Notes: generated by a model not told the origin, from the sequence alone. DNA of 64,000 bases from Promethearchaeota archaeon (GCA_014728035.1 WJMJ01000071.1:32001-96000); one strand, 5' to 3'. Positions 22,084 through 53,110 are shown, counted from the first letter of the stretch. Numbers and translations: made by a program.

Positions 22084-22361
22084 TCTTAGCGCCGCCTTCG
22101 AACAAGTATGAGTCTTGCCCCTCGTGGGTACGTTATGAAATTGTCGGTCACACCAATTACGCAATTTCCCTGATTTTGCCTTCGAAACTCAAAATTTAAC
22201 TCCAAAAAATCGATAATCATTCCGATTAATCTTATTTTGGATAAATTTTAAGAATGTTCGAAAAATCGCAGTTACAATACAAACACTCATATAGCTCCGG
22301 TGAGTGTTTAACTGGAAAGGTGCATTGTGGAATACCTCTTGCACAAATCCGGGGTGCAATA

Positions 22362-22913
22362 GTGAAATTAGTTGATTTAGCAGCTGAAGCAGTTAAAGTC
22401 TTGAAAGAATATGGAGAAGAAGGTATCAGAAGTGATATTCTTGCAGAACAACTTCGGACTCCGAAACGACGAGTATATGATGTTCTTGCTGTGCTGCGAG
22501 CTTTGAAATTAGTAAAGACAAATCGTAGATTTAATGGTACTACCGTTACGTGGGTAGATCCTATCAAAGATTTTGTACAACGCAATGAATATGAAGATAT
22601 CAAATCACAATTAGATGAAGAACGCCAATCCCGGAAAGATTTGCAGGTTCAAGTTGCCGAGCTGAAGGAGCAAATCCGAATCACAAAAAGCAAACTTCGT
22701 CGTGATACACCCTCCATTGAGGTATCTGAAAAAACAGAATTCAATACGACTCAACTAAGAATTCGGTCTCTTTCATCAAGTGGATTTGCTAGTGTGAAAG
22801 ATTCTGGGATGGAGGTCTACATTGAAACGCATGAACCAGGAATGGTTGTAGACCCAACTGTTAGTAAGAAAGATGAACACGAAGCTTTACTTCGGAGTCT
22901 TCAAAGAATATAA
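22362..22913 (+). CDS. E2F/DP-like winged-helix transcription factor with coiled coil
   Basis: LAEQLRTPKRRVYDVLAVLRALKLV...VTW resembles the E2F/DP RRxYD signature and is followed by heptads. GTG at 22362 with GGGGTG at 22351. Confidence 0.65.
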   Translation: MKLVDLAAEAVKVLKEYGEEGIRSDILAEQLRTPKRRVYDVLAVLRALKLVKTNRRFNGTTVTWVDPIKDFVQRNEYEDIKSQLDEERQSRKDLQVQVAELKEQIRITKSKLRRDTPSIEVSEKTEFNTTQLRIRSLSSSGFASVKDSGMEVYIETHEPGMVVDPTVSKKDEHEALLRSLQRI

Positions 22914-29955: not shown

Positions 29956-31446
29956 GTGCTACATATCAGAGCGACTCGTGATATTCCTAGACAAAATATT
30001 AGGAAAGGTGATGAATTTCACCTCTATATAGTTGATTTTCACCATCATATGGGGCGCGAAAAAAGTCATCAAAACACACCGTCTGGAGCATATGAATTCT
30101 ATACCTTACTTTGGTTTGAAATGCAGAAAATTTCTAAAGATATGAGCGAGTCCGATAGTTTTCTTTTCGAGCCTTTAGGGGTGGTGCCTACTCCTATGGT
30201 TTCAGACTTATTTGAAGCAAAAAAGAGTTGGAATCGATTGAATCATGGATGGCTTATTGATAGAAGCGTCGTTTTTCCATATACTGATGACTATTCAATG
30301 AGTGGTTATCCCGACAAACCCTCCTTTCATACCTCAAATGAGAAAATCGCAGGATGGACAACCCGCCCGCCAAATTCAGCTCGTCTTATTGGTTTTTGTA
30401 GGGTGGATCCACTCGATGGATCTAAGATTTCTAAGGAATCAGCTGTAAAAGAGTTAGATTATGCAATTGGAACTTTAGGTCTACGAGGACTAAAATTACA
30501 TCCGTTGGCTCAATTATTTGTTGATGCGATAGAAGATGATTTGACTGCACGCGTAATGAAGCGAGCTGCGGAATGGTGTATTCCTGTAATTTTTGATACT
30601 CGCAACATAAATACTGCAATAAAGATTCAGAACCTTGTTTCTCAGGTACGAGAAGATAATCCTTCGTTATCTAATGATTTGAAGGTCGTATTAGCTCATT
30701 GTGGAATGAATCCAGGAGACTCTCGTCTTTATAGAATTCTTAGAGACCCCGCCATCTATGGTGAAACTTCCAGTCTACATGGGAAGGACATTCCCGTTCT
30801 TTTCGAAATGGCACAAGAGCGTATACGTATCATGGGTGAGAGCTGGTCTAACAAAATCCTATTTGGTACTGATTACAGTTTCTTATCTGTACAAGCAATT
30901 GACCTCATTCTTTTTTTACTCACTCACGAGTTTCCTGGCACTTTAGCTGATGCTCAAAAAATATTAGCAGGTAATGCTCTCACACTGATAAATAGACCAT
31001 TTTTCTCAAAATCCAAAACCATTACAAAATCTCAACAATATTCATTCTCTTATGATAGAGCTGAACCGATCAAGGAGTTTCTGATCAAGCTATTCCTGAA
31101 AAAAGATATTGATTTGGCTTCTTTAGACGTGATGATTCCTCCGTCTTCTACCTGGCCTGATTTGGAGCCATTGCAAAATGGTGGTTATAATGGAATTCAT
31201 TTCGACTCACTTATAGCTTCACTTAGAAAACGTGATGGGTCTAAAGAATTACATCTATGGCTAAGAGAAAATCTTGGATTAGTAAGACTATCCCTGTTAC
31301 AAAGTCATGGTGATAAATCTTTGAAAAAACTAGAATTAACGTCTGATTCTATACCTCAATCTCTTTATGAAGAATTGGAATCAACCAACGTTCAGACCGA
31401 TTCATTTGGTGAGATTCTAAGTCACGTTTCAGAGATATTTTCATAG
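29956..31446 (+). CDS. amidohydrolase family protein (Amidohydro_2)
   Basis: IVDFHHH, GFCRVDP, GLRGLKLHP, VVLAHCG, KILFGTDY, KILAGNA. Confidence 0.85.
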   Translation: MLHIRATRDIPRQNIRKGDEFHLYIVDFHHHMGREKSHQNTPSGAYEFYTLLWFEMQKISKDMSESDSFLFEPLGVVPTPMVSDLFEAKKSWNRLNHGWLIDRSVVFPYTDDYSMSGYPDKPSFHTSNEKIAGWTTRPPNSARLIGFCRVDPLDGSKISKESAVKELDYAIGTLGLRGLKLHPLAQLFVDAIEDDLTARVMKRAAEWCIPVIFDTRNINTAIKIQNLVSQVREDNPSLSNDLKVVLAHCGMNPGDSRLYRILRDPAIYGETSSLHGKDIPVLFEMAQERIRIMGESWSNKILFGTDYSFLSVQAIDLILFLLTHEFPGTLADAQKILAGNALTLINRPFFSKSKTITKSQQYSFSYDRAEPIKEFLIKLFLKKDIDLASLDVMIPPSSTWPDLEPLQNGGYNGIHFDSLIASLRKRDGSKELHLWLRENLGLVRLSLLQSHGDKSLKKLELTSDSIPQSLYEELESTNVQTDSFGEILSHVSEIFS

Positions 31447-31521: not shown

Positions 31522-32799
31522 GTGAAATTGGAAATCATTGATGGTGGAGACCTTAGAGGTTACGCCAATTTGCATCCCGCTACAGCAAAAAGATTGAATT
31601 CAGATATTGGGTCGATTGTTATTTTTGAAGACCCCCATAGCAGTTTTTGGGGCGCAGCGGAGATTCGGAAAAGCAAGGATATTGATGAGAACCAGATAGT
31701 AGTAGACTCGCTAGTACTTGAGGCATCACTTCTTATGGAAGGTGATGAGGTAGAAGTAGTTCTTTATGATGAAGATATGATTGCTTTAGAGTATGTTGAA
31801 TTTGGATTAAAACCCCTCACAGAAGATGCGAATACTGATGATTTGGTTAGTAGAGCAGCTGAATCATTTGATACTCTTGAAAAATTAATTGGGGGTCGGT
31901 TGGTATATCCTGGTATGTCCTTTAATTGGCCAGAGTTGGATGTTAAAGTTGAAATCTTGACAACACGACCTTCTCTTTCAGGAAAAAGTTTTGCGAAGCT
32001 TGCTTTTGAGGCACTGAAGGAACGTACTGGATATCAGTTCAAAACTATCGGGATTGCAACTCCCTTTAATGCCATTTTATGCATTGATACAAGTGGGTCT
32101 ATGAAAACAACAGATGTTCCAGTACAAGATATTGCTCACGCACGAGAGGGACTCAAGGATCTTGCTGGAGACAATCCTGAAGTCCAAGCTTTCTTAGACC
32201 GATTTGAAGAAGGATCAAAAGTTAGTAGAGCTGAAGCTGCTGCTATGGCGGTCTTACTATATCTAGCTGAAAAAGTAGGACGCGGATATGGTGAAAAAGT
32301 TGCCGTAATCACTTTTGAGAAATCTGTGAGTGAAATGACATTTCTTGATTCTGAAACTGGTGAAGTACAGCCTTTTGTTGAATGTACTGGTCGTGAAAAA
32401 GCATTAGGTTTACAGATTATTAGCACCCATGTTGTTGATAAGGTCGAAGAAGGAGGTACTCTTACCGCAATGGGTTCATCGCTTCAAACAGCTGCTGATA
32501 TTTTGGATGCATTCGGAGAGAAAACCAAACCTACAATGCTTATCATGTTGACAGATGGAATGACAACTTTCGGACCTCCCCCTCTCAAAGTTTTGAAGGA
32601 GCAATTTCCAGATCGGTCTCGTCTAGTTATTTATTGCATTGGACTCGGTGAAAGAAGTGAGATTGATGAAGAATTGATGCTTGCAATGGCACAATATGGC
32701 AATGGCACCTATCGTCATGTGGATAATATGCGTGATTTGCTTGAGTGGTATGGACGACTAGCTACCGAATTTGCAGTTGTTGTTCGTGGTGAAGACTAA
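31522..32799 (+). CDS. Cdc48/VAT-N-like domain + vWA domain protein
   Basis: The N-terminus resembles the double-psi barrel (GYANLHPATAKRL...IGSIVIF...IVVD...EGDEVEV). Intact MIDAS: DTSGS, GTLT, LTDG. Confidence 0.8.
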   Translation: MKLEIIDGGDLRGYANLHPATAKRLNSDIGSIVIFEDPHSSFWGAAEIRKSKDIDENQIVVDSLVLEASLLMEGDEVEVVLYDEDMIALEYVEFGLKPLTEDANTDDLVSRAAESFDTLEKLIGGRLVYPGMSFNWPELDVKVEILTTRPSLSGKSFAKLAFEALKERTGYQFKTIGIATPFNAILCIDTSGSMKTTDVPVQDIAHAREGLKDLAGDNPEVQAFLDRFEEGSKVSRAEAAAMAVLLYLAEKVGRGYGEKVAVITFEKSVSEMTFLDSETGEVQPFVECTGREKALGLQIISTHVVDKVEEGGTLTAMGSSLQTAADILDAFGEKTKPTMLIMLTDGMTTFGPPPLKVLKEQFPDRSRLVIYCIGLGERSEIDEELMLAMAQYGNGTYRHVDNMRDLLEWYGRLATEFAVVVRGED

Positions 32800-34406
32800 G
32801 AGTGTTCGAATGCTTGGGACAGTGATTTCAGAGTCGGTATATCCATTTCTCTAATTTGGTCTTCTGGGATACTAGCTAGCATATCTTCTGGGATTTGAGC
32901 TAGAATCTCCGCTTTCTCTCTCCCGTACTTTTCGATCAAAGAATCAATCTTCTTGTCTCCAGTCAGCTCCAAAATTTCAGGTTCTGATTTTTCTATTTCC
33001 ATTTCTCCCATTGAAGAAATCAGCATTTCTATCTCGTCTTCAGTCATCGCTTCTATTGCTTCTTTACCCATTGACTCTTTTACTTCGTCAGGTAACTTAC
33101 TCAATAGGTCGTCTTTTTTGGACTTGGATTTCTCTTTTTTCGTTTTGGAGGGTGTCAGTTTCTTTGCTTCTTCGATTATTTTTATTGCTGTGGCATTACC
33201 GATTCCATCAACCTCCTCTGCTAGCTTATCGGGATTCGCCTTAGCCACATCAAGAACTGACTCATATCCAGCTGCTTTAAGGCTTTCAACGGTCGATGGA
33301 CCTATTCCGCTGATATCCTCAAGTGTTAGTTTCTTCTTTTTCTTTCTTCTAACTCTTCTAACTACCTTCTTCTTTTTCTTCTTAGGGGATTTCTTTTCAG
33401 GAACTATCGCTTCTTCTACCTTTGCAGTGACATCTTCAGATTCAGCTGTCATATTAAGGAGTGCTTCAAGCTCTTCAATACTAATATTCTCTAGTACATC
33501 TGAAGGCATACTATCCTTAACCTCGTCAGGAAGTCTGGCTAGCATTTCCTCTCTTGCTGTTTCCGTTTTTACTCTTTGAACTCTTCTTACTTTCCTGACT
33601 TTACCTCTATCTGTCTTTGGTTTCTTCTTTTCTTTTTCAATTGACTTCTCTTTTGATGCGAATGATTCCATCAACGAGTTAACCAATTCTCGTGCGGTTT
33701 TGGGTGTGAGTCTACTGAGGTCTTCAGGTGGAAGAGTTGCTAGTATTTCATCAGGGAGCTCTGATAATATTTCTGAAATCTCATCAGCGGTTGTTTTTGG
33801 CTCTATTCTTTCGATTTTCGATTTTTCAAAAACGATTGGTTTTCCAGTTAACTCTTCCTCTAAAATTGAGTAGTCTATCTCAATATCAAAGTCCTTATTT
33901 TTCCATTTCAGAAGAGAATCTATTGCCTCCGGATCCATCTGAATTTCTCTTAGATACAGTCGGATATCCTCTTCGACCATCCCTGGGAAATCAGCTATGA
34001 TCTTGTCAATTTCTTCCTCTGGCAATCTAGCCCATAATGGACCATGAATCAATTTTGAGAGCCCATTTGCACAATGGGATCTAACCCAAGAATTGGAATC
34101 TTTTAACCCCTCTAGTAATATCGGAATTGTCTTTGGCTGGTGGTAATATGCCAAAGCTTGTGCAGCTGCTATTCTTACATCATCTTCATCATCATTCATT
34201 GCTTTTGCAATATCATCTACTATATTGGGATTCGAGTATTCTATTGATGCAAGTAGAGCTCTTTCCCTCACAACGTCTGAAGAATCAGACATTGCTTGAA
34301 CCAAGTCCTTTCTCACTTCTGAATTTTCCCTTGCCAGTTTTCCAACTTGTTCGGTTTCAAATTCTAACAATAGACGTCTCGTTTTTGACAAAGGAATTCT
34401 CTCCAA
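32796..34406 (-). CDS. HEAT-repeat + helix-hairpin-helix protein with repeated LPD/E helical modules
   Basis: HEAT-type D..VR motifs; LEDISGIGPSTVESLKAAGY...VDGIGNATAIKI (HhH); four LPDE/IPED repeats; poly-Lys/Arg linkers. Confidence 0.75.
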   Translation of the reverse strand: MERIPLSKTRRLLLEFETEQVGKLARENSEVRKDLVQAMSDSSDVVRERALLASIEYSNPNIVDDIAKAMNDDEDDVRIAAAQALAYYHQPKTIPILLEGLKDSNSWVRSHCANGLSKLIHGPLWARLPEEEIDKIIADFPGMVEEDIRLYLREIQMDPEAIDSLLKWKNKDFDIEIDYSILEEELTGKPIVFEKSKIERIEPKTTADEISEILSELPDEILATLPPEDLSRLTPKTARELVNSLMESFASKEKSIEKEKKKPKTDRGKVRKVRRVQRVKTETAREEMLARLPDEVKDSMPSDVLENISIEELEALLNMTAESEDVTAKVEEAIVPEKKSPKKKKKKVVRRVRRKKKKKLTLEDISGIGPSTVESLKAAGYESVLDVAKANPDKLAEEVDGIGNATAIKIIEEAKKLTPSKTKKEKSKSKKDDLLSKLPDEVKESMGKEAIEAMTEDEIEMLISSMGEMEIEKSEPEILELTGDKKIDSLIEKYGREKAEILAQIPEDMLASIPEDQIREMDIPTLKSLSQAFEHS

Positions 34407-34626: not shown

Positions 34627-35445
34627 ATGAAAAGTAAAGAAACACTTAAACCCAATATCTATCGAGTAATCCTGTTTTCTCTGCTCATGTTTATTATTGT
34701 GTTATTACCTGTATCTGCTAGTTTCATTTTCACCGGTGAATCCTACAATCTAATTGTCACATTACTATTCTTCGGAAGTTTCATTTTAATGTATATTCTC
34801 CCACTATATTTTGTACGGTGGGAGGGTGGAAATTCTATAGAAGAGCTTGGTGTAGGTATGGATGATAATACCGTACGAGACCTGTTTATTGGTGGACTTA
34901 CTGGCATTATTGCATCTGGTTTTGTGGTAATCTTCGCATATCTTGGTGGCACTCTCAGACCCGTAAGTCAAATAACTACAGATCTCATCATTTCTCAAAT
35001 CATCATTACTACACCAGTTGCGTTTTTCGAAGAATTATGTTACAGAGGTTATATGATGACTCGAATGGCTCGATTAGGTGGTCCTATTTTTGGCATATTA
35101 CTTAGTTCAATTCTTTTCTCCTTGTTTCATTTCAGTTGGTGGATTCCACTTGGTACTGTCCCACCTCATATGATCCTATTGTTTACAACAAATCTTCTAC
35201 TTGGTGGAATTGTCCTAGGTTTATCGTACTATTTGTCCGGTGAGAAATTGTGGGCAGCTATTGGGTTCCATTTCATGTGGAATATGATTGCTTACATTAT
35301 GTTTCCCATATATCCTCGTGAGTTTGCATATCTTCCTGAAATCTTCCAAATAGAGTGGGGGATTATTTCAATACTGGGATTTCTACTTGGAGCTGTTATC
35401 ATATGGTTCGTATACTCATCACTAATCCAAAAAGAATCTGAGTAA
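34627..35445 (+). CDS. CPBP/Abi (type II CAAX) intramembrane metalloprotease
   Basis: EELCYRG, FSLFH, AAIGFHFMWN. Confidence 0.85.
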   Translation: MKSKETLKPNIYRVILFSLLMFIIVLLPVSASFIFTGESYNLIVTLLFFGSFILMYILPLYFVRWEGGNSIEELGVGMDDNTVRDLFIGGLTGIIASGFVVIFAYLGGTLRPVSQITTDLIISQIIITTPVAFFEELCYRGYMMTRMARLGGPIFGILLSSILFSLFHFSWWIPLGTVPPHMILLFTTNLLLGGIVLGLSYYLSGEKLWAAIGFHFMWNMIAYIMFPIYPREFAYLPEIFQIEWGIISILGFLLGAVIIWFVYSSLIQKESE

Positions 35446-37171: not shown

Positions 37172-37984
37172 TTACAAGTTAGATTCCTCTTGTCCTAATT
37201 CGGAGATTCTATCAACATATGGAATTGTAGGAAGGATGAGGTTTTCATTCTTAATAGCTTTTGAGACCAAGATACAGATTGGTGCTACGATAAATGTAGC
37301 AATTATCCGCTCAATGGGATAAAGAAAAGCTACAGACACATAGAATGGTGCGATAACTTCTGCTGGTACTAACTGGATATAGATGAAGTAGTAAACTCCA
37401 ATAACGGAACCAATCAATTGATCTGTCATCACAGCTATGAATGCCATAATTAGGAAAGGAAGAATTCTGAAGGTGAAATTGCTTTCTGTTGTTGGTGTCA
37501 CTCCTTCATACAATAATCTCCCAACTTGTGGAATAATGAAGATCATGCTAATGATTAAAGCTATGATATGTAACCAGAGAAATATTCCAGCTTGAAGGAA
37601 AATAGGCCCAATAACAAAAAGAACTGTTCCAGATAGATAGATTAAGAATGATATTTGTGGTCTTCCCATTCTGATTGCCCCTGCAACAAGTGCAGCAGAT
37701 GCAGGTGCAAGAGGTGTAAATGGTCCAAGTATGGTGCCTATTGCAGGATTTGCAAACATTCCAAGAGTAGTACCAATAATTACTGCTAGGGTTCCATATA
37801 ATGGTCCTAGTAAGAAACCAATTATTGGTGCAGAAATCAAACCAAATGAAATTACACCTTCAATACCAACTGAGATACTAAATGGAATTATAGTTATGAT
37901 AAAATGAATTGCTGCAAATACTCCTGTTAATGCCCAAGGATAAGCACTTGATTTTTGAATCTGCGACATATATTTCTTCACCAA
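37172..37984 (-). CDS. ECF transporter S-component-like membrane protein
   Basis: APIIGFLLGPLYG and YPIERII; multiple TM segments. Confidence 0.65.
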   Translation of the reverse strand: MVKKYMSQIQKSSAYPWALTGVFAAIHFIITIIPFSISVGIEGVISFGLISAPIIGFLLGPLYGTLAVIIGTTLGMFANPAIGTILGPFTPLAPASAALVAGAIRMGRPQISFLIYLSGTVLFVIGPIFLQAGIFLWLHIIALIISMIFIIPQVGRLLYEGVTPTTESNFTFRILPFLIMAFIAVMTDQLIGSVIGVYYFIYIQLVPAEVIAPFYVSVAFLYPIERIIATFIVAPICILVSKAIKNENLILPTIPYVDRISELGQEESNL

Positions 37985-39213: not shown

Positions 39214-42200
39214 TCAATAGACAGTGAATTGTTTTCTTGGTTGTTTGATTGCTCTCTTAGGAAGAATCTTTCCTTTCTGCATTATGATTAGTTCAAGGTA
39301 ATATGCTGTAACCATAACATCAGGTGTGATCCAATCTACTGATGCTGTATACTGATCTTGGTCGGAGTCAGGAATTTCTATCTCAAACTCCTTGATGATT
39401 TCTCGTCTTGAAAGAATGCGCAATATTGCTTGGAGATTGTTAAACTCTCCTTTAAGCGATTTCATGTCAATCTTAATAGTGACCGGAGTTACTCTTTGGA
39501 CTAAACTGGGAATTTCATCACCAGATTGATTTCGGATTGTGAAATCTACCCTAAATATTGGCTCTTCGATAGCTTTCACTTTCAGTCTAAGCCGTCCTTC
39601 AAATACACGTTTTTCACACTGCAAGTTAACCTTGAGCTGAGCTGTACTCATTTCAGCCGTTAGGGGAATTGAAAACTGTGTTGGAATTAGTTTTGTTGTA
39701 TTTTTCTCTATTAGTACTTGTTTCGAAATTATTTGATTGGTTCCAGCAACCGATTCCAGAAATACCGTTAGAGTACAATTCAATAACATTGAAGATATAT
39801 TGGTCAGATGTAGTGTCCCAGATACAGTTTCATCTGGTGAAACAAATTTTGGAATTCCACTAAATGTTATTTTAGCTATTTCTTCTAAAATGTCAGATCC
39901 CAAATTGATGTTCTGTGTTTTCTGGTCCAATACGATTCCACCGTAAGACAGTCGTGCTATAAGCACAACATGTGATGGGCTGGTATCTGTCTTAGGTTTC
40001 GGTATTTCCAGTGGTCCAAATGCAAATGAAAGATTCCTGCTTTGTTTCACAGATTGTCTAAGTACTAAATGTTCTTCACCGTCAGGAAATTGAAATAACA
40101 TTTCTACAGCAGCTGGTTCCCCTAGTTCTGTGTTCCTCCTAATTCTCAGCCAACCTGAAATGCGCTTTCCAATCTGTGACTTATTTGGAGCTCTTAATGA
40201 GTCAATACTAACTCTAACTCCCAGATGTGCAATTCGCATTCTATCTGATTCAGTGACACTCAATTGAGAACCATTAAATTCTATCCAGGCTTTGATTATT
40301 CCCGTGCGAGCTTCTGGTGCTTCATTTGATATTGTTGGAACACGCCATCGGAATGCTAAAGCCTCAGAAGTTAAGTCTGATATTTTCATACTTGCTATGT
40401 CATATACTTCTCCAGTATCAGTATGATATGCGACATGAAGTGATGCGTGTTTTGGAATTTGTTTTCCTCTCGCTTTAATTGCAACCTCTCCATGAATCAA
40501 TTCGCCAGGAGAATGCGCTTCTTTAGCATCTGTTCGTAAAAGTACCTGAGGTCCCTTTTTCACGAATCCTGCATAAAACGGCTTAGATGTTACAGTGGTA
40601 ATCTCTTCTTCGTCTTCTAGTAAACTAACTCTTAAGACACATCTTTGGACACCCTCACCTGCATCTTCCGGAATTATCAACGGGGGAAAGTCCTCATGGT
40701 CTACTACTCTTAGTTCACCTTTCTCAATCTTCAGTGGTGTACTAACGGATGCAAATATTTTTTCTCTCGAAGGAGCGATTACTTCAACTCTGCAATCCAT
40801 CATTGTGTTGAATGGATAGTTTGTGTCTATTTCTCCAGAAAATCGAACTGGCGTCTTGCCATCAACAAATTGGGTGGTTGTCCCTGGTCTTGCAGAAACG
40901 CGCATCCAGTAAGTACTAATTGTACCAGTTACTGGGATCTCTCTCCCTGCGATACCTATTTCTGAAAATACATTGTAAGCTGAAACTCCCCGTTTAGTTT
41001 GAAAACTCAAGTTTTCAATATGGATTTGACCTGATTGTATTTTGGATATCGGGATGATGTTACTTTCAACAATATTTCTATCCGAGTCTTCTATTGTGTA
41101 CTTGATGGTAAGATTGGTGATATCTCTATCCAATGTATTCTTTATGGTTATCATAAAATGGGCTTCTTGACCTGAAAATACTTTGTCTGAATCGATAACT
41201 AGTTCTGGTTCAATTCCTTTCCACCAACATAGCCATGTCGGTAGGTTAGGAGTGCCATCTAACGGGTCATATAACCAGTTTGTACAACACTCTCGTGTAA
41301 TTTCCGCTAATCGTTTCAAAAGAACTACCATGTTGAAGTCCGATTTTGCAAATACATCAAGTTGGAAATCTGCACCTGTTGTTCGAGCTTCTACTGTTTC
41401 GCTTCCAAAAATGGATATCAACAATGCTTGGAAAAAGGGATTATCAATAGCATTTAGCTCTTCTAATTCATCACGAATTATATAGAGCATTGAAATAACA
41501 GCGTCTCCCATGAACCTGTTTCTCTTTCTGGATGATACTGACCCATCATCTTGGATTTGAAAATTATACATTTTCAAAAAATCAGAAATCTGCGCACTTT
41601 TACCAGGTCTAAAAGGGGCCCATAGACCTGCTGCTATTGCTGCTTCTCTGTTGGCTGCTAAAGTATTAGCACTTACATCCGGGACGAATTTTCCTTTTTC
41701 AACCATTCGTTTTGCCTTGAGTGCCAACGCTTGAAGTAGTAGAGCGATTCCTATCCTTCTGGGTACAGATAACTGAGTATCTGTGACTCGTATTTCTATG
41801 GTACCATAATCTGTGAAGGGAAACATATCCACCATTCTTGGGGGACTTCTATTGACATGACGAGCGAAGGCGTCTTCATCTGCAGATTTCAAATGTGGTA
41901 TGTATTCGAATTCATTACTAGGTCCCATCTGAGTTGTGTTTTTCCATAGACGAATCGATCGCTTGCATCTTGGTGCGCGAGTACGATTTTTCTCGTCCAC
42001 AAAAATTTCATCTGATGCCATTTTATTTTCAAAAGGTGAGTTGACCGAGAGAGCGATTAATTGTGGGATAAAATTTCGTATCATGTTGTATACTGCTATT
42101 TTTACACTATTGTCAACATTTGGTCCAAGAATGTGATGATGTTCTCCAAATGACAGATTTTTGAGGTATTCTTGTGTCGGATTCAATCCAGTTGAAATGA

Positions 42201-42645
42201 GTACTACTCTTGATTCTCTGGGTATTGAATCATATGAGACCGCTATCAGTGTTTGAACCCACCAAGCGAGTTCTTCCAGTGTTGTACATGGAGGTGTTGC
42301 AATTTCTAAGATCCATGTTAATGAAGTTACATTTGGATCATGGCCAAGCAAGGTGTATTCTCGAGCAACACCTTGTGGGTCTTGATAACTTGCTACTATC
42401 CTTGAACCTCTTTCTCCCTCTTCAGTTTGAGCGGAGTGATTATAGTTTTGCTTAACCGTTTCTACACTGGTATTCTTTATCTTCCTGTCCAATAGTATTT
42501 TTGCACTCGATACAATTCTATCAAAAATATCTAGTATCTCATCGCCACGAATCCAGCTTCCATCTCGATTTACAACCTGCAATTCGACTTCGATGCCATG
42601 GGGAAATGGTAGTTGAGTTTCTTTTTCTCCCCTATCTTTCCTCAT
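39214..42645 (-). CDS. GCS2/YbdK-type glutamate-cysteine (carboxylate-amine) ligase fused to multiple beta-sandwich domains
   Basis: HGIEVELQ, LEIATPPC, FGEHHHI, LIALSVNSPF, GTIEIRVTD, then ~650 aa of beta-rich modules. ATG at 42645 with GGTGGTG upstream. Confidence 0.8.
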   Translation of the reverse strand: MRKDRGEKETQLPFPHGIEVELQVVNRDGSWIRGDEILDIFDRIVSSAKILLDRKIKNTSVETVKQNYNHSAQTEEGERGSRIVASYQDPQGVAREYTLLGHDPNVTSLTWILEIATPPCTTLEELAWWVQTLIAVSYDSIPRESRVVLISTGLNPTQEYLKNLSFGEHHHILGPNVDNSVKIAVYNMIRNFIPQLIALSVNSPFENKMASDEIFVDEKNRTRAPRCKRSIRLWKNTTQMGPSNEFEYIPHLKSADEDAFARHVNRSPPRMVDMFPFTDYGTIEIRVTDTQLSVPRRIGIALLLQALALKAKRMVEKGKFVPDVSANTLAANREAAIAAGLWAPFRPGKSAQISDFLKMYNFQIQDDGSVSSRKRNRFMGDAVISMLYIIRDELEELNAIDNPFFQALLISIFGSETVEARTTGADFQLDVFAKSDFNMVVLLKRLAEITRECCTNWLYDPLDGTPNLPTWLCWWKGIEPELVIDSDKVFSGQEAHFMITIKNTLDRDITNLTIKYTIEDSDRNIVESNIIPISKIQSGQIHIENLSFQTKRGVSAYNVFSEIGIAGREIPVTGTISTYWMRVSARPGTTTQFVDGKTPVRFSGEIDTNYPFNTMMDCRVEVIAPSREKIFASVSTPLKIEKGELRVVDHEDFPPLIIPEDAGEGVQRCVLRVSLLEDEEEITTVTSKPFYAGFVKKGPQVLLRTDAKEAHSPGELIHGEVAIKARGKQIPKHASLHVAYHTDTGEVYDIASMKISDLTSEALAFRWRVPTISNEAPEARTGIIKAWIEFNGSQLSVTESDRMRIAHLGVRVSIDSLRAPNKSQIGKRISGWLRIRRNTELGEPAAVEMLFQFPDGEEHLVLRQSVKQSRNLSFAFGPLEIPKPKTDTSPSHVVLIARLSYGGIVLDQKTQNINLGSDILEEIAKITFSGIPKFVSPDETVSGTLHLTNISSMLLNCTLTVFLESVAGTNQIISKQVLIEKNTTKLIPTQFSIPLTAEMSTAQLKVNLQCEKRVFEGRLRLKVKAIEEPIFRVDFTIRNQSGDEIPSLVQRVTPVTIKIDMKSLKGEFNNLQAILRILSRREIIKEFEIEIPDSDQDQYTASVDWITPDVMVTAYYLELIIMQKGKILPKRAIKQPRKQFTVY

Positions 42646-42646
42646 T

Positions 42647-43315
42647 TTATGACACCACCAATGTGAATAATTTGAACAATTCAGCAAGCTTCTCGATATC
42701 ATGTGCAAGTGAACTTGATATTGTTAGCTCAATTGCCATGGTGTCTTGATAGTTTTTGATAGATTCGATAACCGAAAAGATTAGCTTTCCTCCTCCAAAC
42801 TCAGATTTATCCTCCACAATGTTGAATGTCGAATCTCTTATTTTTTGGATAAAACTAGTTGCTCGCAGTGCGAATCTCTTGCCTATTACTATTGTTTTTT
42901 CTATCTCAAGAATTTCAGGTAATTTATGAATTTTGAGTGAGATAAACATCAGGTTATTTCCATATTTACGAAGATGTCCTAATAGACGATTTACTATTTC
43001 ACTATAGGATTTCTTGTTCCCTGTTGGGCTGGATTGAACCATAAATGACGGCAGTTTAACTCCCTTTTCTCTCACATCTTTAAGAAAATTGATAACCATT
43101 CTGTCTTCTGGAGAATTATCTTGAAGACATATCATTACTCTTGGGATTCCTATGATATAGTCACCATCTGATACCGATTTGGAAATCCGTCTATCTTGCG
43201 TCATTATATGGATTGTTTCAGATATTGACGATACCTTGTCAGTAATTTGCTTAATTAGATCTTTAGCTCTCTCAAGGCTTTGTTGGATGTCTTCAATAGA
43301 TGTGGGTCTATCCAT
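42647..43315 (-). CDS. degenerate N-formylglutamate amidohydrolase-like protein
   Basis: Motif order FISLKIH / IVIG / EFGGGKLI / AIELTISSSL mirrors FGase (liDcHS / dlG / PyaGG / aiQiEi..L). Confidence 0.45.
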   Translation of the reverse strand: MDRPTSIEDIQQSLERAKDLIKQITDKVSSISETIHIMTQDRRISKSVSDGDYIIGIPRVMICLQDNSPEDRMVINFLKDVREKGVKLPSFMVQSSPTGNKKSYSEIVNRLLGHLRKYGNNLMFISLKIHKLPEILEIEKTIVIGKRFALRATSFIQKIRDSTFNIVEDKSEFGGGKLIFSVIESIKNYQDTMAIELTISSSLAHDIEKLAELFKLFTLVVS

Positions 43316-43383
43316 ACTTTAACCTCAAGGGACCGTGATGATATTTCACTATCCCTAACGGTTATTATCTTTACTAGAACTAT

Positions 43384-43821
43384 TTAGTTTTCAGCAACAA
43401 GTTTGTAAACTCTCTTCAGTTTCTGTGACAGCTCTCGTAGCTTATACCAGACGGTCTCGCGTCCCTTTTGTTCAGCAAGCTTGTCGATTAACATCTGGTG
43501 GTCGAACTCTCCAATATCTTTCAAAAGAATAAGTGCTTCTTCATCTGTAAAATGTGACTTGTTGACACGTCCATCCTTAAAACGTTTGATTAAAGGTAGT
43601 AATGCTTTTTCTGCAGAATCCACCTTGATTAATGCTTCTCGGTAAGAATCTTTTGGGTCTTTCATGGCAAACCCACCAATTAGGGGGGTCATTCCTACTC
43701 CCATGGATCCTTCACCAAGACTATCAAGGATATCCATTGCATCTTGGTAGTACTCGTATGTATCTGTTAGACATTTTTTTATCGCGCGTATAATTCTTGG
43801 ACGGTCGGACACTTCAGCCAT
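43384..43821 (-). CDS. hypothetical helical protein
   Basis: 145-aa ORF with a GAGG SD. Confidence 0.6.
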   Translation of the reverse strand: MAEVSDRPRIIRAIKKCLTDTYEYYQDAMDILDSLGEGSMGVGMTPLIGGFAMKDPKDSYREALIKVDSAEKALLPLIKRFKDGRVNKSHFTDEEALILLKDIGEFDHQMLIDKLAEQKGRETVWYKLRELSQKLKRVYKLVAEN

Positions 43822-43896
43822 TTTTAGACCTCTTGATTATTGAAAAACAGGAAATAAGGACCCGATTGGGTCCTTAATCTATCAAATTTGATTTTT

Positions 43897-47178: not shown

Positions 47179-48762
47179 TTGTCCGAATCAAAAAAATCCA
47201 GTTGGAAAGATAGCAACTGGTACATGAGCCTCACTGGTTTTTGGAAGGAATACCGTAGACATAAGATCGGTATTCTTGGTATTATCGTGCTTTTATTTTA
47301 TGTTGGAATGGCCGTTGGAGCTCCATGGCTAGCAACTCACGATCCCTCTCCAAACAACACAGTTGCACCAGAATTTCTTGCTCCTGGGTGGATGTCAGTA
47401 TTTGATCCTACAGGTGTAATTACCGATCAGTATATGCCCGATCGTGAATTAACCGAAGCGCCTGAATTTGAACTCATTGGCGACTCTACTGATTTCTCCT
47501 ACGAGCATTATGTACCGGATGGAGGGAACGGTCGAGTTAATTTAACGTGGGAACATACAGCTGGTACTGAAATTACACTGCAAGATCCATATGATACTGG
47601 ACCTCAGCTATTAGATCCTATCGCTGATTCCTTTATTGTCTTTAAACAAGAAGTCGAATGGCCATTTGAAGGTCTTCCTGAGGATGTCAATATCTCACTA
47701 ACATATGCTACCACTCTTACAGGTGATTTCCTCACTGAAGAGCGTGGTGGTCTGATGTTCAGAGCTTATATCTGGTTTATTGATGATTCAGGAAACTGGA
47801 TGCGAGTATTTGAATCAAATCCTCCATATGCTGATTATTTTCAGACTCGAATCAAACATCTTAGCTTCTTCGACATCAGAGACACCTTTGGTGGAATGGT
47901 TGTAGACGAAAACAATGTGCAGGAAGATGAACGAGATGTATTCACTGTAGCTTTTGGTCTTGTTCCTTCAGAAACGTTCTTCGAAGATTCTGTTGGCGAT
48001 TATGAACATCCATATCTTAACTACACTGGTGGCGTGGAAATAACTGTCGAGGAACTTGGAGTTATTGCACATGGAGGCTATTTTGGTGTACTTGGAACCA
48101 CCGATAAAGGTGGGGATGCTTGGAGTCAGTTAGTGTTTGGGTCTCGCATCTCACTTACCATTGGTATCCTTGCTACTGCTCTGTCAACTGCGGTTGGTGT
48201 GATTGTAGGTCTTACTGCTGGATACTTCGGTGGAAAAACTGATGAGATTTTAATGCGTGTTGTAGACTTCTTACTAGTCATTCCCGGATTGCCATTGATG
48301 ATGGTCTTGGCGGCCTTCTTAGGGCCGACTATAGAGAACATCATCGTTGTAATTTCAATTCTGGGTTGGACTGGCACCTCGCGACTTATACGATCGCAAG
48401 TAATGGCTGAGAAGAACAAAGCATATGTTGAATCTGCAAGAGCTATTGGAGCATCTGATACTTACATCATCTTTAGGCACATTCTACCCAATGTAACCCC
48501 AATTCTCTTTGCAAATATCACCTTGGGTGTTGTCGGTGCTATTCTATCAGAATCCGGTCTTGCATTTTTGGGTCTAACTGATCCTAACGAACCTAGCTGG
48601 GGTCGGATGATTGCAGACGCACAAGGCACAGGTGGATTCAGCCAAGGTGCTTGGTGGGTTGTGGTATTTCCAGGGTTGATGATCACAATACTTTCATTGG
48701 CCTTTACCTTTGTAGGTCATACTCTAGACCAGGTTCTTAATCCAAGGCTCAGAGAAAGATAA
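47179..48762 (+). CDS. oppC: oligopeptide ABC permease with large extracytoplasmic insert
   Basis: LGTTDKGGD, GSRISL, YVESARAIGAS, RHILPNV, SWGRMI, LNPRLR. Confidence 0.9.
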   Translation: MSESKKSSWKDSNWYMSLTGFWKEYRRHKIGILGIIVLLFYVGMAVGAPWLATHDPSPNNTVAPEFLAPGWMSVFDPTGVITDQYMPDRELTEAPEFELIGDSTDFSYEHYVPDGGNGRVNLTWEHTAGTEITLQDPYDTGPQLLDPIADSFIVFKQEVEWPFEGLPEDVNISLTYATTLTGDFLTEERGGLMFRAYIWFIDDSGNWMRVFESNPPYADYFQTRIKHLSFFDIRDTFGGMVVDENNVQEDERDVFTVAFGLVPSETFFEDSVGDYEHPYLNYTGGVEITVEELGVIAHGGYFGVLGTTDKGGDAWSQLVFGSRISLTIGILATALSTAVGVIVGLTAGYFGGKTDEILMRVVDFLLVIPGLPLMMVLAAFLGPTIENIIVVISILGWTGTSRLIRSQVMAEKNKAYVESARAIGASDTYIIFRHILPNVTPILFANITLGVVGAILSESGLAFLGLTDPNEPSWGRMIADAQGTGGFSQGAWWVVVFPGLMITILSLAFTFVGHTLDQVLNPRLRER

Positions 48763-48777
48763 TACGATGTTAGAACT

Positions 48778-48817
48778 GAAAGGCCCATTCTGTGGGTCTT
48801 TCTCCTTTTCCTTTTTT
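48778..48817 (+). terminator. hairpin + oligo-T after oppC
   Basis: gaaaggccca-ttctg-tgggtctttc followed by tccttttcctttttt. Confidence 0.65.
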
Positions 48818-48929
48818 CCGCAATCTCACATCACCGAGAACATCAACCTTATATGGGTGATAGGAGTATACTATCTTGTTATACAGTACTTAGTCGTACT
48901 AGGTATAAACTAAAATGGAGTGTCTGAGA

Positions 48930-49979
48930 ATGGGACTACGTGAATATGTCATCAGAAGGAGCATTTACATGTTTCTTCTTGTTGTGGCGGTAGTATGTTT
49001 CAACTTCTTTCTCTTTAGACTTCCAACTCTTGTATTAGATGTCAGTCCTGTTGACCTGATGATTAGCGAAGAACTGAGAAGAAACCTTACACGTCAGGCT
49101 TTAGCCGAACTGTATCAGCGTTTCGGATTGGTTCCTGATCCTGACATTTTTGACTGGATCTACATGTTTTGGCGATACCTCGTCAACATGTTCACAGGCA
49201 ATTTCGGTCTATCCTTCTGGAATCAGCAACCAGTTATGGATGAGATTATGGAACGCCTTCCAAATACTCTCTTATTGATGGGAACATCATCTATTGTTTC
49301 TATTATTTTGGGTATCTGGACTGGTGTAAAGGTCGCAGCTGACCCCGGTTCTCGAAAAGATGTCAGTGCTGTTACATTAGCTCTCTTCATTTACTCATTA
49401 CCTATCTTTTGGTTAGGTATGATGTTGTTGATGATTTTCGCTTTCTACGTACCTGAATTGACTGGTGGGTTGATAGGATTCCCCTTAGGGAAGACAATTA
49501 CCCAACCACTTTGGGGTGTAGCAAAAGCGAGTCCTCTTGGTGGGTTATGGTTGGCAGCTGATATTCTTCATCACCTTTTCCTCCCAATGATTGCATTGGG
49601 TGTAGGTGGTTATGGTGGTTACTTCCTCTATATGCGTAACAATCTCATTGATGTTATGACTGAGGATTACATCTTGACTGCTCGTGCAAAAGGTCTTGAT
49701 GAGAATCAAGTTCTATACAAACATGGTCTAAAGAATGCTATGTTACCAATGGTTACGATTATTGCTATGACCTTCGGGTTCTTGATAAATGGAGCGACGC
49801 TTACCGAAACGGTGTTCAACTGGAACGGGTTAGGTCGCTATATTTTTGATAGCCTGTTCCGGTTAGACTATCCAGTAGTCCAAGCAATCTTTATGATCAT
49901 TGCAATCACCGCTATTCTAGCTAACTTCGTAGCTGACCTACTATATGGTGTATTAGATCCTCGGATTAAGTACGGATAG
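48930..49979 (+). CDS. oppB: oligopeptide ABC permease
   Basis: GNFGLSF, RLPNTLLL, SLPIFWLG, DYILTARAKGL, ETVFNWNGLG, LDPRI. Confidence 0.9.
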   Translation: MGLREYVIRRSIYMFLLVVAVVCFNFFLFRLPTLVLDVSPVDLMISEELRRNLTRQALAELYQRFGLVPDPDIFDWIYMFWRYLVNMFTGNFGLSFWNQQPVMDEIMERLPNTLLLMGTSSIVSIILGIWTGVKVAADPGSRKDVSAVTLALFIYSLPIFWLGMMLLMIFAFYVPELTGGLIGFPLGKTITQPLWGVAKASPLGGLWLAADILHHLFLPMIALGVGGYGGYFLYMRNNLIDVMTEDYILTARAKGLDENQVLYKHGLKNAMLPMVTIIAMTFGFLINGATLTETVFNWNGLGRYIFDSLFRLDYPVVQAIFMIIAITAILANFVADLLYGVLDPRIKYG

Positions 49980-49999
49980 TTGTTTCAGCTATTAGGAAT

Positions 50000-50033
50000 C
50001 GGCCCTACTGGGCCGCATTTCTTTTTCTTTTTT
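50000..50033 (+). terminator. hairpin + oligo-T after oppB
   Basis: cggccc-tact-gggccg followed by catttctttttctttttt. Confidence 0.65.
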
Positions 50034-50240
50034 AAGATTCTACCAAAAATATCTGATGATATTGGTACTACTACTCAATACATTTAATCGCGAGTAGTGG
50101 AATATGTCTACACTTAATCTGCCTACTATCATTATTGTCAGCTATTTCAATGTGTACTGAAATGAACAATAACGCTTTTATTACCCTCTATCTTATTTGA
50201 TGTATCCGATTTCGACTCGGAAAAGGAGATAGAGAGAATT

Positions 50241-52076
50241 ATGGCTAGCACACGTGTGAAAAGATTTGTTGCTTTGTCACTCGTTACTGCTTTTATGTTG
50301 ATGGCTGTTTCTCCAGCTCTTGTCGTTGCACAGGATGGACTTCCTGGTCATGCAAAGTCAGGGCCTTATATTGACAAACTGGTCTTCAACGTAATCACAG
50401 GTGACGACGCACAAGTCCTCGCACTGAAAAACGATGAAATCGATCTTATCGGTGACATGGTTGACCCAGGTTTCCTCCCTGAATTAGAAGAGGATGATAA
50501 TATCGAGGTCGCTAATGTACTCCGAAATGGATATGGATACGTTACAATAAATTGTGACAAATACCCACTTAACTATACAGCCTTCCGTCGAGCTCTTGCT
50601 TTTGCATTAGATAAAAACGCAATCTCAGACCAAGTTTGGGACAGTCTATCGGTACCACAGGACTCCTGTGTGCCACAGGTGAACCCATTCTCAATTGAAG
50701 GTGACCTACCATACACTTACTACGCAGCCAACGTACAGAAGGGTAAGAATCTACTTGCTCAGGCTGGGTTTGCAAACGTAGACGATGATGACTTCTTAGA
50801 GGCACCTAATGGTGAAGACTTTGACATCCTCGTAGAATGTGCACAATCTTCTGAGATTGCTGTTGAAGTAGGTCAGAAAGTTGCAGAAGCTCTACAGGCA
50901 TTAGATATTGATGCTACTTCAATCGCAACAGACTTCTATGAATATCTTAACCGTCTTTACTTCCACTTAGATTATGATATCGTCTTCCTTGGTTCAAGTT
51001 TCAGCACATTTGATGTTGACTGGCTCGCTTATGAGTACTGGTCAGATTATGCAGATGAACCATACTGGAACTTCCCTAACTTCAGAAACGATTCATATGA
51101 TGATTGGAGAGATGAGCTCCTCTATGGTACCACTTTTGAAGAGGTATATGAGGCAGCTATTGAGATGCAGAAGATCTGGGTATTTGAGTGTCCAATGATC
51201 ATCTGTTACGAAAACGTTCTTCTTTCCGCCTACCGAACTGACAAGTTCGAGGGATTTGTCAACGATGTTAGTGATGGTGTACCTGGATGGTGGACCAACT
51301 ATAAGGTTCACAGAAAGGCCGCTGGTCAAGAGATTGGTGGAACTTTCCGCTGGAGCAACCCTCTAGACATCGACACCTTCAACTTCATGACAAGCTCCTC
51401 TGCTTATGCAGCTAATATCAATAACCAGCTTTGGGATAGTCTTATCACCCAGGACTCACAGGGTAATGACGTCAACTGGCTCTGTGAAGACTTCACAACT
51501 GAGACCCATGACGACAACCCAGCAGTACCTGATGGTCACACTAGGTTTACCTTCAATATGATCCAGAACGCAACCTGGACCGATGGTACTCCTATTACTG
51601 CAGAGGATGTTGCCTACTCGTTGAACTTCTTCAAGACTTCAGCTGGCAACCCCTATGGTGCAGACCTGACAGACCTCGCAGCAGCTTATGCCCAGACTCC
51701 TTACACACTCGTTGTAGAGTTTGATACGGAATCATATTGGCACCTGCACACGGTCTCATACAAACCTATCCTACCTAAGCACATCTTCACCGACCCAAGC
51801 TTCCCAACTTGGAACGAGTGGGATCCTGACCCAACTGACCCTGACGAAGAATTCTTTGTCACCTCTGGTCCATTTACCGTATCTGAGTCCGTTGACGGTG
51901 AGTTCACAGAACTCGAATACAACCCCAACTACTTCTACGGTATTGAGCACCCAGATGTCACTGATACAACTGATGCTCCTGTAGCACCAGATGTTTTGAT
52001 GGCAGTTGTAGCTGGCGCTGTTGGCGCTGCAGTGGTCATCCTCGTTGGTGGATATGTCCTGATGAGGCAAAAGTAG
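50241..52076 (+). CDS. oppA: peptide ABC transporter substrate-binding protein (family 5), signal peptide + C-terminal TM anchor
   Basis: FRRALAFALDK, WTDGTPITAEDV, SGPF, YNPNYF; N-terminal signal and C-terminal TM segment. Confidence 0.85.
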   Translation: MASTRVKRFVALSLVTAFMLMAVSPALVVAQDGLPGHAKSGPYIDKLVFNVITGDDAQVLALKNDEIDLIGDMVDPGFLPELEEDDNIEVANVLRNGYGYVTINCDKYPLNYTAFRRALAFALDKNAISDQVWDSLSVPQDSCVPQVNPFSIEGDLPYTYYAANVQKGKNLLAQAGFANVDDDDFLEAPNGEDFDILVECAQSSEIAVEVGQKVAEALQALDIDATSIATDFYEYLNRLYFHLDYDIVFLGSSFSTFDVDWLAYEYWSDYADEPYWNFPNFRNDSYDDWRDELLYGTTFEEVYEAAIEMQKIWVFECPMIICYENVLLSAYRTDKFEGFVNDVSDGVPGWWTNYKVHRKAAGQEIGGTFRWSNPLDIDTFNFMTSSSAYAANINNQLWDSLITQDSQGNDVNWLCEDFTTETHDDNPAVPDGHTRFTFNMIQNATWTDGTPITAEDVAYSLNFFKTSAGNPYGADLTDLAAAYAQTPYTLVVEFDTESYWHLHTVSYKPILPKHIFTDPSFPTWNEWDPDPTDPDEEFFVTSGPFTVSESVDGEFTELEYNPNYFYGIEHPDVTDTTDAPVAPDVLMAVVAGAVGAAVVILVGGYVLMRQK

Positions 52077-52222: not shown

Positions 52223-53110
52223 ATGCAAAGGTGTTTGTTCTTGAAAATTAATAGATCGCGAATCATACTTATCCTTCTATCGATATTTCCATTAGTTATT
52301 GGGTCTGCTATCGGAATCTCCGTACTTGGTAGTGGTCTTATTGGGCGAATAATATCAGAATCTTACAATTATAGTGTGTCCGATATAATCATACAAGCAA
52401 TAGTATCGACAGGGTTGGGTGCACTTGTAGTTTTAGCTTTATTCACAGTAATGAAGAGAGGTGGACGTGGTACAAGGAAAATTGTTGTCGCATTTGTTGT
52501 ATCGCCCATTCTCTATTTTGTTTCTTTGTTTGTAAGTCAGGTTTTCCTGCTTATACTACTAAAGGGATCTGAAGATGTATGGTTTGGACTTTTATCTCTT
52601 TTTTCTCTGGCTGTTGCAATGGTATCTTTAGCTCTTTTGGTAATTGATGCAATTCCACCAACAGTCCGCAATCTGTTTGTAATATTTTATGGAAGTGTTT
52701 TTGGTGTATTCATGGGATTAACCTTAATCACTTCTACGATGTTTGTGATGATATTAACACTAATAGTCGAAGACTATTTCCTTACAAGACATTCTCCAGC
52801 AATTGATGATATACAGATGGATGACCGTTTAGGATCTGATCCATTTGATTATACCCGCATAAAGACAGAGAGTGTTTCTATTGGTGCTGGCGATTATGTT
52901 ACATTCTCTTTGATTTCATCCCATACTGTTGCCTTCTTTCCTTGGTATGTCTGGGTTATGTCCATGGCACTTGCCTCTGTGGGTATTATCATAAATATCA
53001 CTATTTTGGCTAAAGAGGATGATATACTCCCAGCTATTCCTCTCCCTGCTGGTTTAGCTTTACTACCATGGATTCTTCACATTGCATCTCTTTTTATCCT
53101 TGGAGCTTGA
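52223..53110 (+). CDS. presenilin/SPP-like (A22) intramembrane aspartyl protease
   Basis: About nine TM segments; TM Asp (VEDYF), GAGD, LPAIP (PAL-like). Confidence 0.65.
   Translation: MQRCLFLKINRSRIILILLSIFPLVIGSAIGISVLGSGLIGRIISESYNYSVSDIIIQAIVSTGLGALVVLALFTVMKRGGRGTRKIVVAFVVSPILYFVSLFVSQVFLLILLKGSEDVWFGLLSLFSLAVAMVSLALLVIDAIPPTVRNLFVIFYGSVFGVFMGLTLITSTMFVMILTLIVEDYFLTRHSPAIDDIQMDDRLGSDPFDYTRIKTESVSIGAGDYVTFSLISSHTVAFFPWYVWVMSMALASVGIIINITILAKEDDILPAIPLPAGLALLPWILHIASLFILGA

Follow-up and report, generated by a model that had tools for sequence, protein, structure and literature searches.

The gene considered here encodes a protein of 1143 amino acids (aa) and lies in a 64,000-nucleotide (nt) stretch of a Promethearchaeota archaeon genome (GCA_014728035.1 WJMJ01000071.1:32001-96000, hereafter the window). 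As its motifs indicate, residues 1-475 are a divergent carboxylate-amine ligase of the GCS2/YbdK superfamily. Residues ~475-1143 are, in the predicted structure, six non-catalytic beta-sandwiches of the macroglobulin (MG) or immunoglobulin (Ig) kind. The strongest conserved partners of this ligase are an Amidohydro_2 hydrolase and a Cdc48N-vWA protein, both of which were missed in an earlier note on the same DNA. We propose, with a probability of roughly 0.45, that the 1143-aa protein serves as “writer” in an Asgard-wide ligase/hydrolase module of the cytoplasm that marks a protein or peptide.

The superfamily assignment is drawn from several profile comparisons. NCBIfam TIGR02050 (the YbdK family) matches residues 163-341 with an E-value of 4e-16 and 59.1 bits against a cut-off of 176.4, Pfam GCS2 (PF04107) matches at E 0.004 (17 bits against 21), and equivalog models give 23-45 bits against cut-offs of 332-427. 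A precomputed PF04107 match is present in most relatives of the ligase. Because every curated cut-off is missed while the motifs and superfamily matches are present, the protein is placed in the GCS2 superfamily and not as a YbdK or GshA equivalog. A profile built from 49 family members matched the YbdK structure 1r8g (E 3e-10) in three blocks, namely GIEvE, FGeHHHi…PhliALSvNSP and D…P…GTiE.RvfD, in which G17-I18-E19-V20-E21 pairs with GIELE, FGEHHHI with FGQHVHV, and GTIEIRVTD with GTVEVRVMD.

The earlier note had read intact GCS2/YbdK catalytic motifs in the first ~470 aa, and this was borne out by alignment. The GhExE, HxH and ExR motifs hold throughout 15 ligase domains from eight Asgard families, with G17, E19, E21, E114, H169, H171, E284 and R286 invariant; G17, E19 and E21 are also invariant among the 49 family members. 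GhExE is a signature of carboxylate-amine ligases, PafA included, and lies on the first core strand as part of the Mg/ATP site (PMC2588565). The ratio of nonsynonymous to synonymous substitution rates (dN/dS) in the ligase domain is 0.05-0.07 for pairs with dS < 1, which denotes strong purifying selection. Every motif predicted for Mg-ATP binding and acyl-phosphate chemistry is thus kept, and the domain is apparently an active ATP-dependent carboxylate-amine ligase.

The two partners emerged from loci outside the window’s own family (f1). In all 11 loci fetched from families other than f1 and f2, an Amidohydro_2-like gene encoding about 470-520 aa adjoins the ligase, and in nine of the 11 a vWA protein is near it, in locus L037 with a CDC48_N-like N-terminus. 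Of the 301 Asgard genomes sampled, 175 have the ligase domain. With the amidohydrolase scored at E <= 1e-30 in 300 genomes, which are related so that the counts are not independent, ligase and amidohydrolase were present in 66/76 and 65/76 genomes of f1, 62/68 and 62/68 of f9, 5/5 and 5/5 of f7, 6/6 and 6/6 of f19, 16/21 and 15/21 of f22, and 11/11 and 10/11 of f27. Both were at zero in the same 19 other families, and both genes occur in two copies in f7 and in f19.

A natural fusion also joins two of these components. In P0299 and P0401 (962 and 968 aa), residues 1-409 are a full-length Cdc48N-vWA homologue (BLASTP 5e-25 to window 31522-32799), after which comes the ligase domain (LPFSHGIEMELQ at about residue 453). 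No confirmed locus for the P0299 fusion was found among metagenome contigs, and a search of the 300 Asgard genomes at E <= 1e-100 returned nothing.

One f1 genome that is 97% complete carries a remnant-like ligase match of 708 aa and 32% identity (G055:C27:82052-84112) and gives no match to the amidohydrolase at E <= 1e-30. Neither gene is present in several further complete f1 genomes, from genera g3, g4 and g7. These absences suggest joint loss. Around the vWA gene of the window, a HEAT+HhH protein (32796-34406) adjoins it, and just upstream of its gene cluster, at 22254-22913 (+), a gene encodes 219 aa with a winged-helix domain of the E2F/DP family (E 5e-8).

A third candidate partner is the 222-aa protein (p222) encoded directly upstream of the ligase. 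As had been noted before, the ligase starts 1 nt past the stop of this gene: the TAA of p222 is followed by one base and then the ligase ATG, with a GGTGGTG stretch a few bases 5' of the ATG, an arrangement that therefore fits translational coupling. Among the 26 f1 loci fetched, 23 show an open reading frame (ORF) of 217-237 aa immediately 5' of the ligase, with gaps from -31 to +12 nt; 22 of these are BLAST-detectable with the window p222 and one (L024) was joined by clustering. The same family is directly upstream of the long-tailed ligase in f2, f7 and f19 (gaps -31 to +15 nt), and in f6 a 214-aa ORF in this position is matched by size and position alone. A word-based homologue search with the window p222 returned the query alone, and it was gene position and BLAST that brought out the family. 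Between two species of the window’s genus p222 is just 36% identical, compared with 80% for the ligase, 76% for the 145-aa protein encoded further upstream (p145) and 98% for OppD. Its dN/dS of 0.17-0.29 shows purifying selection despite this fast change, so it is a real coding gene.

The structural model of p222 (pLDDT 89.1, pTM 0.79) shows an alpha/beta domain behind an N-terminal helix of 44 residues. VIA-align gave tied Z-scores for M42 aminopeptidase (11.2), the FGase-family structure 2odf (11.1), pyroglutamyl peptidase (11.1) and the N-formylglutamate amidohydrolase 2q7s (10.6), with 3a9l (9.2) and 3gaa (8.8) lower. Foldseek placed the PAC2 proteins PbaB and PbaA first (PbaB E 3.5e-5, TM-score 0.49), followed by YndL (1.5e-4), PghP (7e-4) and 2odf (3e-3), and an Atlas feature search with a p222 orthologue gave sub-threshold leads to the FGase and Gamma_PGA_hydro clusters. 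None of 26 members has a Pfam match even at E <= 10, and no PDB sequence match was found. The earlier description of this gene as FGase-like may therefore hold for the fold, in a tie with other Zn-peptidase-like folds, and fails for the sequence, which does not match the FGase family. “Pseudo-FGase” would be a fair label at the level of the modelled fold, where FGase is not separable from PAC2 and other members of the fold class.

Conservation in p222 is concentrated in the motif DxGEFGGGP, with G175 as the sole invariant column and P89, L127, D169, G174 and G176 present in at least 90% of sequences. PghP and FGase have conserved His/Glu zinc ligands; no conserved His or Glu was found in the p222 family alignment, in agreement with the previous impression that clear metal ligands are lacking. 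PbaB carries a C-terminal HbYX proteasome-docking motif, and no hydrophobic-Tyr-X motif occurs at the p222 C-termini (…VVS, …ASF, …TIL). We thus predict that p222 is non-catalytic, with a hydrolase-like fold lacking conserved metal ligands. In f2 and f6 (L028:2889-5306(+), L029:9899-12283(-)), the gene directly upstream of the p222-like gene and ligase encodes an 800-aa protein whose C-terminal domain is EAP30/Vps36 (ESCRT-II-type; Pfam E 3e-19), and it is co-directional and tightly packed with both. Its homologue in the window’s genome is located at G000:C37:136087-138369, outside the window and ~62 kb away.

A p222-like domain also occurs next to ligases without a tail. In f9, f24 and f28 the ligase is stand-alone (~475 aa), and the product of the upstream gene, 381-642 aa long, aligns with the p222 family over its C-terminal 160 residues, DDGLFKDG motif included (hhalign 79%, E 1.6e-5). 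The N-terminus of this Loki-type upstream protein has a weak profile likeness to tail module 5 (probability 29%). If it holds, the carrier of the sandwich modules would be the ligase in some lineages and the partner in others, which would point to a shared complex; such sharing is a lead and not a result. The p222-like domain was not found in the tails of f22 and of the f19 paralogue, nor in 25 N-extended or giant proteins of the ligase family.

An AlphaFold2 model of residues 470-1143, built from 88 sequences, is all-beta with ~47 strands (mean pLDDT 89.6, pTM 0.43); the low pTM is expected for domains strung like beads. The six sandwich modules of ~110-120 aa proposed earlier are recovered in it at about 107-117 aa each. 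Profile comparison (hhalign) linked modules 3 and 4 (92%), 3 and 5 (95%) and 4 and 5 (87%), so tandem duplication produced part of the array. Change in the tail is about twice as fast as in the ligase domain, with 75% against 87% identity within the genus and a tail dN/dS of 0.07-0.14, and module 1 is common to the long forms of f7 and f19, in which matches reach residue ~636. No helical thioester domain, CUB or bait region was found in the tail model. A Pfam scan of this tail and those of four distant paralogues gave nothing significant, with Ig, ASH and MG hints below threshold.

The closest Foldseek matches of the tail were the MG arrays of alpha2-macroglobulin, A2ML1, C3/C4/C5, CD109, TEP1 and ECAM, together with ciliary central-pair Ig/ASH arrays. 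This model comparison would indicate a generic similarity among arrays and is not evidence of homology. Of the Ig/arrestin/TRAPP-like character that had been suggested for the tail, the Ig/macroglobulin-type sandwiches survive and the other two affinities do not, no significant arrestin or TRAPP match being found. For arrestin, the family profile against beta-arrestin-1 gave E of about 0.7-0.9.

Beyond the window, the ligase domain is found in proteins of very different build. Searched against 1.84 billion representatives at E <= 1e-30, its profile retrieved 105 clusters (50% identity), under source names that include Thorarchaeota, Jordarchaeales and Heimdallarchaeota and one metagenome-assembled genome labelled Thermoplasmatota. 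Lengths range from 141 to 3804 aa, the shortest being partial matches and the full stand-alone form measuring ~466 aa. Stand-alone forms have 466-500 aa and in other Asgards end at about residue 470, forms with C-terminal tails total 870-1410 aa, others have N-terminal extensions of 250-600 aa, and some end in C-terminal double zinc ribbons. In giants of 2232-3804 aa (P0282, P0284, P0291, P0292, P0294, P0303, P0306) the ligase domain lies within the C-terminal third, and Pfam found nothing in the rest except one HhH (P0284). P0296, P0297 and P0298 (about 1240-1250 aa) have an N-terminal extension of 560-600 aa, and the two that were scanned, P0296 and P0297, also have a C-terminal double zinc ribbon (DZR, E 2e-8 to 2e-9). 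The protein labelled Thermoplasmatota, P0274 (724 aa, E 3.5e-129 to the ligase profile), has a 245-aa N-terminal extension; its label reflects a binning error or else spread of the family to lineages outside Asgards.

The domain architectures and the vWA fusion, read from sequence, favour a macromolecular setting for the ligase. By analogy with GCS, GS and PafA, the enzyme would phosphorylate a carboxylate, most likely the gamma-carboxylate of glutamate, free or at the end of a protein or peptide, and would then join the acyl-phosphate to an amine. What would hold the enzyme on a macromolecular target or assembly is the sandwich array together with the dead-hydrolase partner and the vWA protein. 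Given this placement, the product would be an amide mark on a protein or peptide, which the amidohydrolase could remove. A more specific version is that ligase, dead-hydrolase partner, Amidohydro_2 and Cdc48N-vWA form a reversible Asgard protein-marking system, acting respectively as writer, reader or adaptor, eraser and docking factor. Such a system would put glutamate or a short peptide on proteins via an acyl-phosphate, independently of ubiquitin and Pup, with sandwich tails and giant fusions selecting the targets. In this complete form we regard the proposal as doubtful.

Several observations weigh against a module that marks macromolecules. In the window neither the hydrolase gene nor the vWA gene is adjacent to the ligase; the distance is 6.4-9 kb, and a spacing of 7-10 kb recurs throughout f1. 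The p222 gene is missing in three f1 genera (L025-L027), that is, in three of the seven for which wider regions were fetched; the synteny that the earlier note named as a check thus holds for this gene in f1, f2, f7 and f19, and by size and position in f6, but not throughout f1. The Foldseek matches of the tail, the comparison proposed in that note, have E-values of 1e-19 to 1e-15 but TM-scores of 0.13-0.27 and identities of 9-11%, and are generic. Since stand-alone forms of about 466-500 aa occur in Loki-type families, catalysis does not require the tail. In 19 loci no ORF of 30-130 aa proved to be conserved across families, shadows within known genes aside, and the annotated genes at 20.7-54.8 kb of the window include none for a proteasome. 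The missing Pup-like ORF would be compatible with a mark of a single residue or with a tag that is encoded elsewhere. Finally, this ligase is the sole GCS2-superfamily match found in its genome, and it could simply be the cell’s gamma-glutamyl-cysteine or related small-molecule ligase.

This last alternative is the strongest, and we consider it a realistic possibility that falls short of being probable. The enzyme would make gamma-glutamyl-cysteine or another gamma-glutamyl conjugate, the amidohydrolase would recycle or process the metabolite, and the tails and partners would regulate or localise the enzyme. Its closest characterised relatives, YbdK and the archaeal and bacterial GshA-type GCS2 enzymes, use free glutamate and cysteine, and the solitary GCS2-superfamily gene, the existence of forms of about 470 aa and the lack of a conserved tag-like ORF near the ligase all agree with it. 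Iyer et al. read the lack of a Pup-like ORF in other uncharacterised ligase families as a sign of peptide formation and not of tagging (PMC2588565). However, the ligase scores far under all curated GshA/YbdK cut-offs (59 against 176 bits for TIGR02050), and a conserved coupling to a vWA protein, even by fusion, would be unusual for an enzyme of thiol biosynthesis. A dead hydrolase-fold partner and recurrent binding-type extensions of 500-3300 aa would be likewise unusual.

It could also be argued that p222 and p145 are incidental neighbours that merely share a colinear block with the ligase. The f1 block OppD-OppF-p145-(p222)-ligase-DUF92-p270-SPFH-NfeD is largely colinear in all seven genera with wider regions fetched, so that synteny within the family says little, and the position of p145 in it carries no functional weight. 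For p145 this explanation holds. The gene does encode a helical protein upstream of the ligase, as first described, and its Atlas model matches helical proteins only, while an Atlas search returned its own cluster alone. It is well conserved (55-76% identity), with the motifs GxGMTPLxGG and RFKDGRVN and, at its C-terminus, nothing conserved beyond an acidic residue at position -2. It was found in Thorarchaeota-labelled records and f1 only, a single family in which a 10-gene block is colinear, and its proposed tie to the ligase is not supported. For p222 the same explanation is unlikely: its absence from the three f1 genera speaks for it, but the gene is again directly upstream of the ligase in the distant f2, f7 and f19, with gaps of 1-15 nt or overlaps, and a p222-like domain occurs in the upstream gene of three further families.

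Last, the lack of conserved metal ligands in neighbouring p222 might invite the view that the ligase domain is itself a catalytically silent scaffold in a binding-protein assembly, which is highly improbable given that strong purifying selection acts on its motifs for binding metal, ATP and phosphate and that all of these are unchanged in eight families.

Comparison with known systems helps to place the proposed protein- or peptide-marking module. With YbdK/GCS2 enzymes (PF04107, TIGR02050, 1r8g) the Asgard ligase shares its superfamily, the GhExE, HxH and ExR motifs and, by prediction, the same two-step ATP-dependent amide-bond chemistry. Unlike YbdK, it has a catalytic domain about 100 aa longer (475 against 372 aa) and a 670-aa tail of six sandwiches, and its family is largely confined to Asgard lineages, bar the one Thermoplasmatota-labelled member. 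YbdK enzymes are not known to have dead hydrolase-fold, Amidohydro_2 or Cdc48N-vWA partners.

PafA/Dop offers a parallel for protein modification: a carboxylate-amine ligase related to GCS2 modifies proteins and has as its counterpart an enzyme that reverses the bond (PMC2588565). The Asgard ligase is similarly GCS2-related and paired with a putative reversing enzyme. Moreover, Pup-proteasome neighbourhoods hold a PAC2-family protein, and PAC2 is one of the folds that the p222 model resembles (Foldseek PbaB E 3.5e-5). On the other hand, the Asgard ligase has no Pup_ligase match (a Pfam scan at E <= 0.01 gave GCS2 alone), its loci have neither a Pup-like ORF nor nearby proteasome genes, and the putative reversing enzyme is a TIM-barrel Amidohydro_2 and not a paralogue of the ligase. 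As to the remaining components, p222 would, by its model, belong to the same alpha/beta fold class as FGase, PghP, YndL and PbaA/PbaB, but differs from them in having no sequence match, conserved zinc ligands or HbYX and in its extra 44-residue N-terminal helix. Like the MG arrays of alpha2-macroglobulin and C3 and the ciliary ASH/Ig arrays, the modelled ligase tail consists of tandem seven- to eight-stranded beta-sandwiches; it differs from these arrays in that it has no thioester, CUB or bait, is cytoplasmic and is fused to an enzyme.

Public records name the ligase “glutamate-cysteine ligase family protein” or “hypothetical protein”, a label that probably misstates its role. No description of the family or its module was found in a full-text literature search, and a review of archaeal thiols notes just GshA-family matches in Asgards (PMC7278568). 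What is new here is a GCS2-superfamily ligase in an undescribed architecture and gene set. Its binding modules (Ig-like array, vWA, Cdc48 N-domain, dead hydrolase) are accompanied by a hydrolase able, perhaps, to undo its product. Asgard archaea are the closest known prokaryotic relatives of eukaryotes, and their protein-regulation machinery has been searched for forerunners of eukaryotic systems. The bacterial Pup ligase arose from the chemical family to which this ligase belongs. Should the substrate be a protein, the module would be a third independent invention of ATP-driven protein tagging, mainly Asgard among the genomes and records examined. If it is a small molecule, a new Asgard metabolite or thiol pathway with unusual scaffolding would be at hand.

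ORF calling gave three minus-strand genes in the same direction, for the ligase, p222 and p145 (Table 1). The longest frame for the ligase is 39214..42708(-), and the ATG at 42645, from which 1143 aa are read, is the most likely start, because the product matches record P0004 (1143 aa) exactly in length and sequence and the alignment with relatives begins at this position; the earlier estimate of ~1140 aa was accurate. Database records include 141 full-length relatives at 49-80% identity, the close ones labelled Thorarchaeota. No signal peptide or transmembrane segment was found in any of the three proteins (maximum 19-residue Kyte-Doolittle mean 1.36, hydrophilic N-termini), which for the ligase repeats the first observation.

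Table 1. Coordinates of the ligase gene, its modules and its partners in the window
Feature	Coordinates	Strand	Description
1143-aa ligase gene, including stop codon	39214..42645	-	GCS2-like ligase domain + six-module beta-sandwich tail (predicted)
Ligase domain, residues 1-475	41221..42645	-	GhExE (G17-E21), E114, H169/H171, E284/R286; YbdK 1r8g E 3e-10
Tail module 1, residues ~474-580	40906..41226	-	beta-sandwich, AlphaFold2 model, pLDDT ~90
Tail module 2, residues ~581-697	40555..40905	-	beta-sandwich, AlphaFold2 model
Tail module 3, residues ~698-808	40222..40554	-	beta-sandwich; homologous to modules 4 and 5
Tail module 4, residues ~809-919	39889..40221	-	beta-sandwich; homologous to modules 3 and 5
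Tail module 5, residues ~920-1026	39568..39888	-	beta-sandwich; homologous to modules 3 and 4
Tail module 6, residues ~1027-1143	39217..39567	-	beta-sandwich, AlphaFold2 model
222-aa partner gene (p222)	42647..43315	-	N-terminal helix + putatively non-catalytic FGase/gamma-PGA-hydrolase/PAC2-like alpha/beta domain
145-aa orphan gene (p145)	43384..43821	-	conserved, Thorarchaeota only
Amidohydro_2-like hydrolase gene	29956..31446	+	conserved ligase partner across Asgards; 7.8 kb from ligase here
Cdc48N-vWA gene	31522..32799	+	conserved ligase partner; fused to ligase domain in P0299/P0401

OppD and OppF are components of an ordinary peptide ABC transporter, whose permease and binding protein are encoded divergently at 47179-52076. 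Just 3' of the OppF stop, at window 43845-43885 (-), a GC-rich hairpin (aggacccaatcgggtcct) followed by a T-rich run looks terminator-like when read by eye, and because of it p145, p222 and the ligase may be transcribed apart from OppDF. On the other side of the ligase, a 270-aa protein (p270; 37172-37984 (-)) without Pfam or NCBIfam match is encoded between DUF92 and SPFH in all seven f1 regions; it is 64% identical within the genus and duplicated in L024. The window also encodes an Rce1-like CAAX prenyl protease homologue (E 7e-17) at 34627-35445 (+) and a protein with a weak presenilin-like match (E 2e-4) at 52223-53110 (+), which together are membrane proteases of a eukaryote-like flavour.

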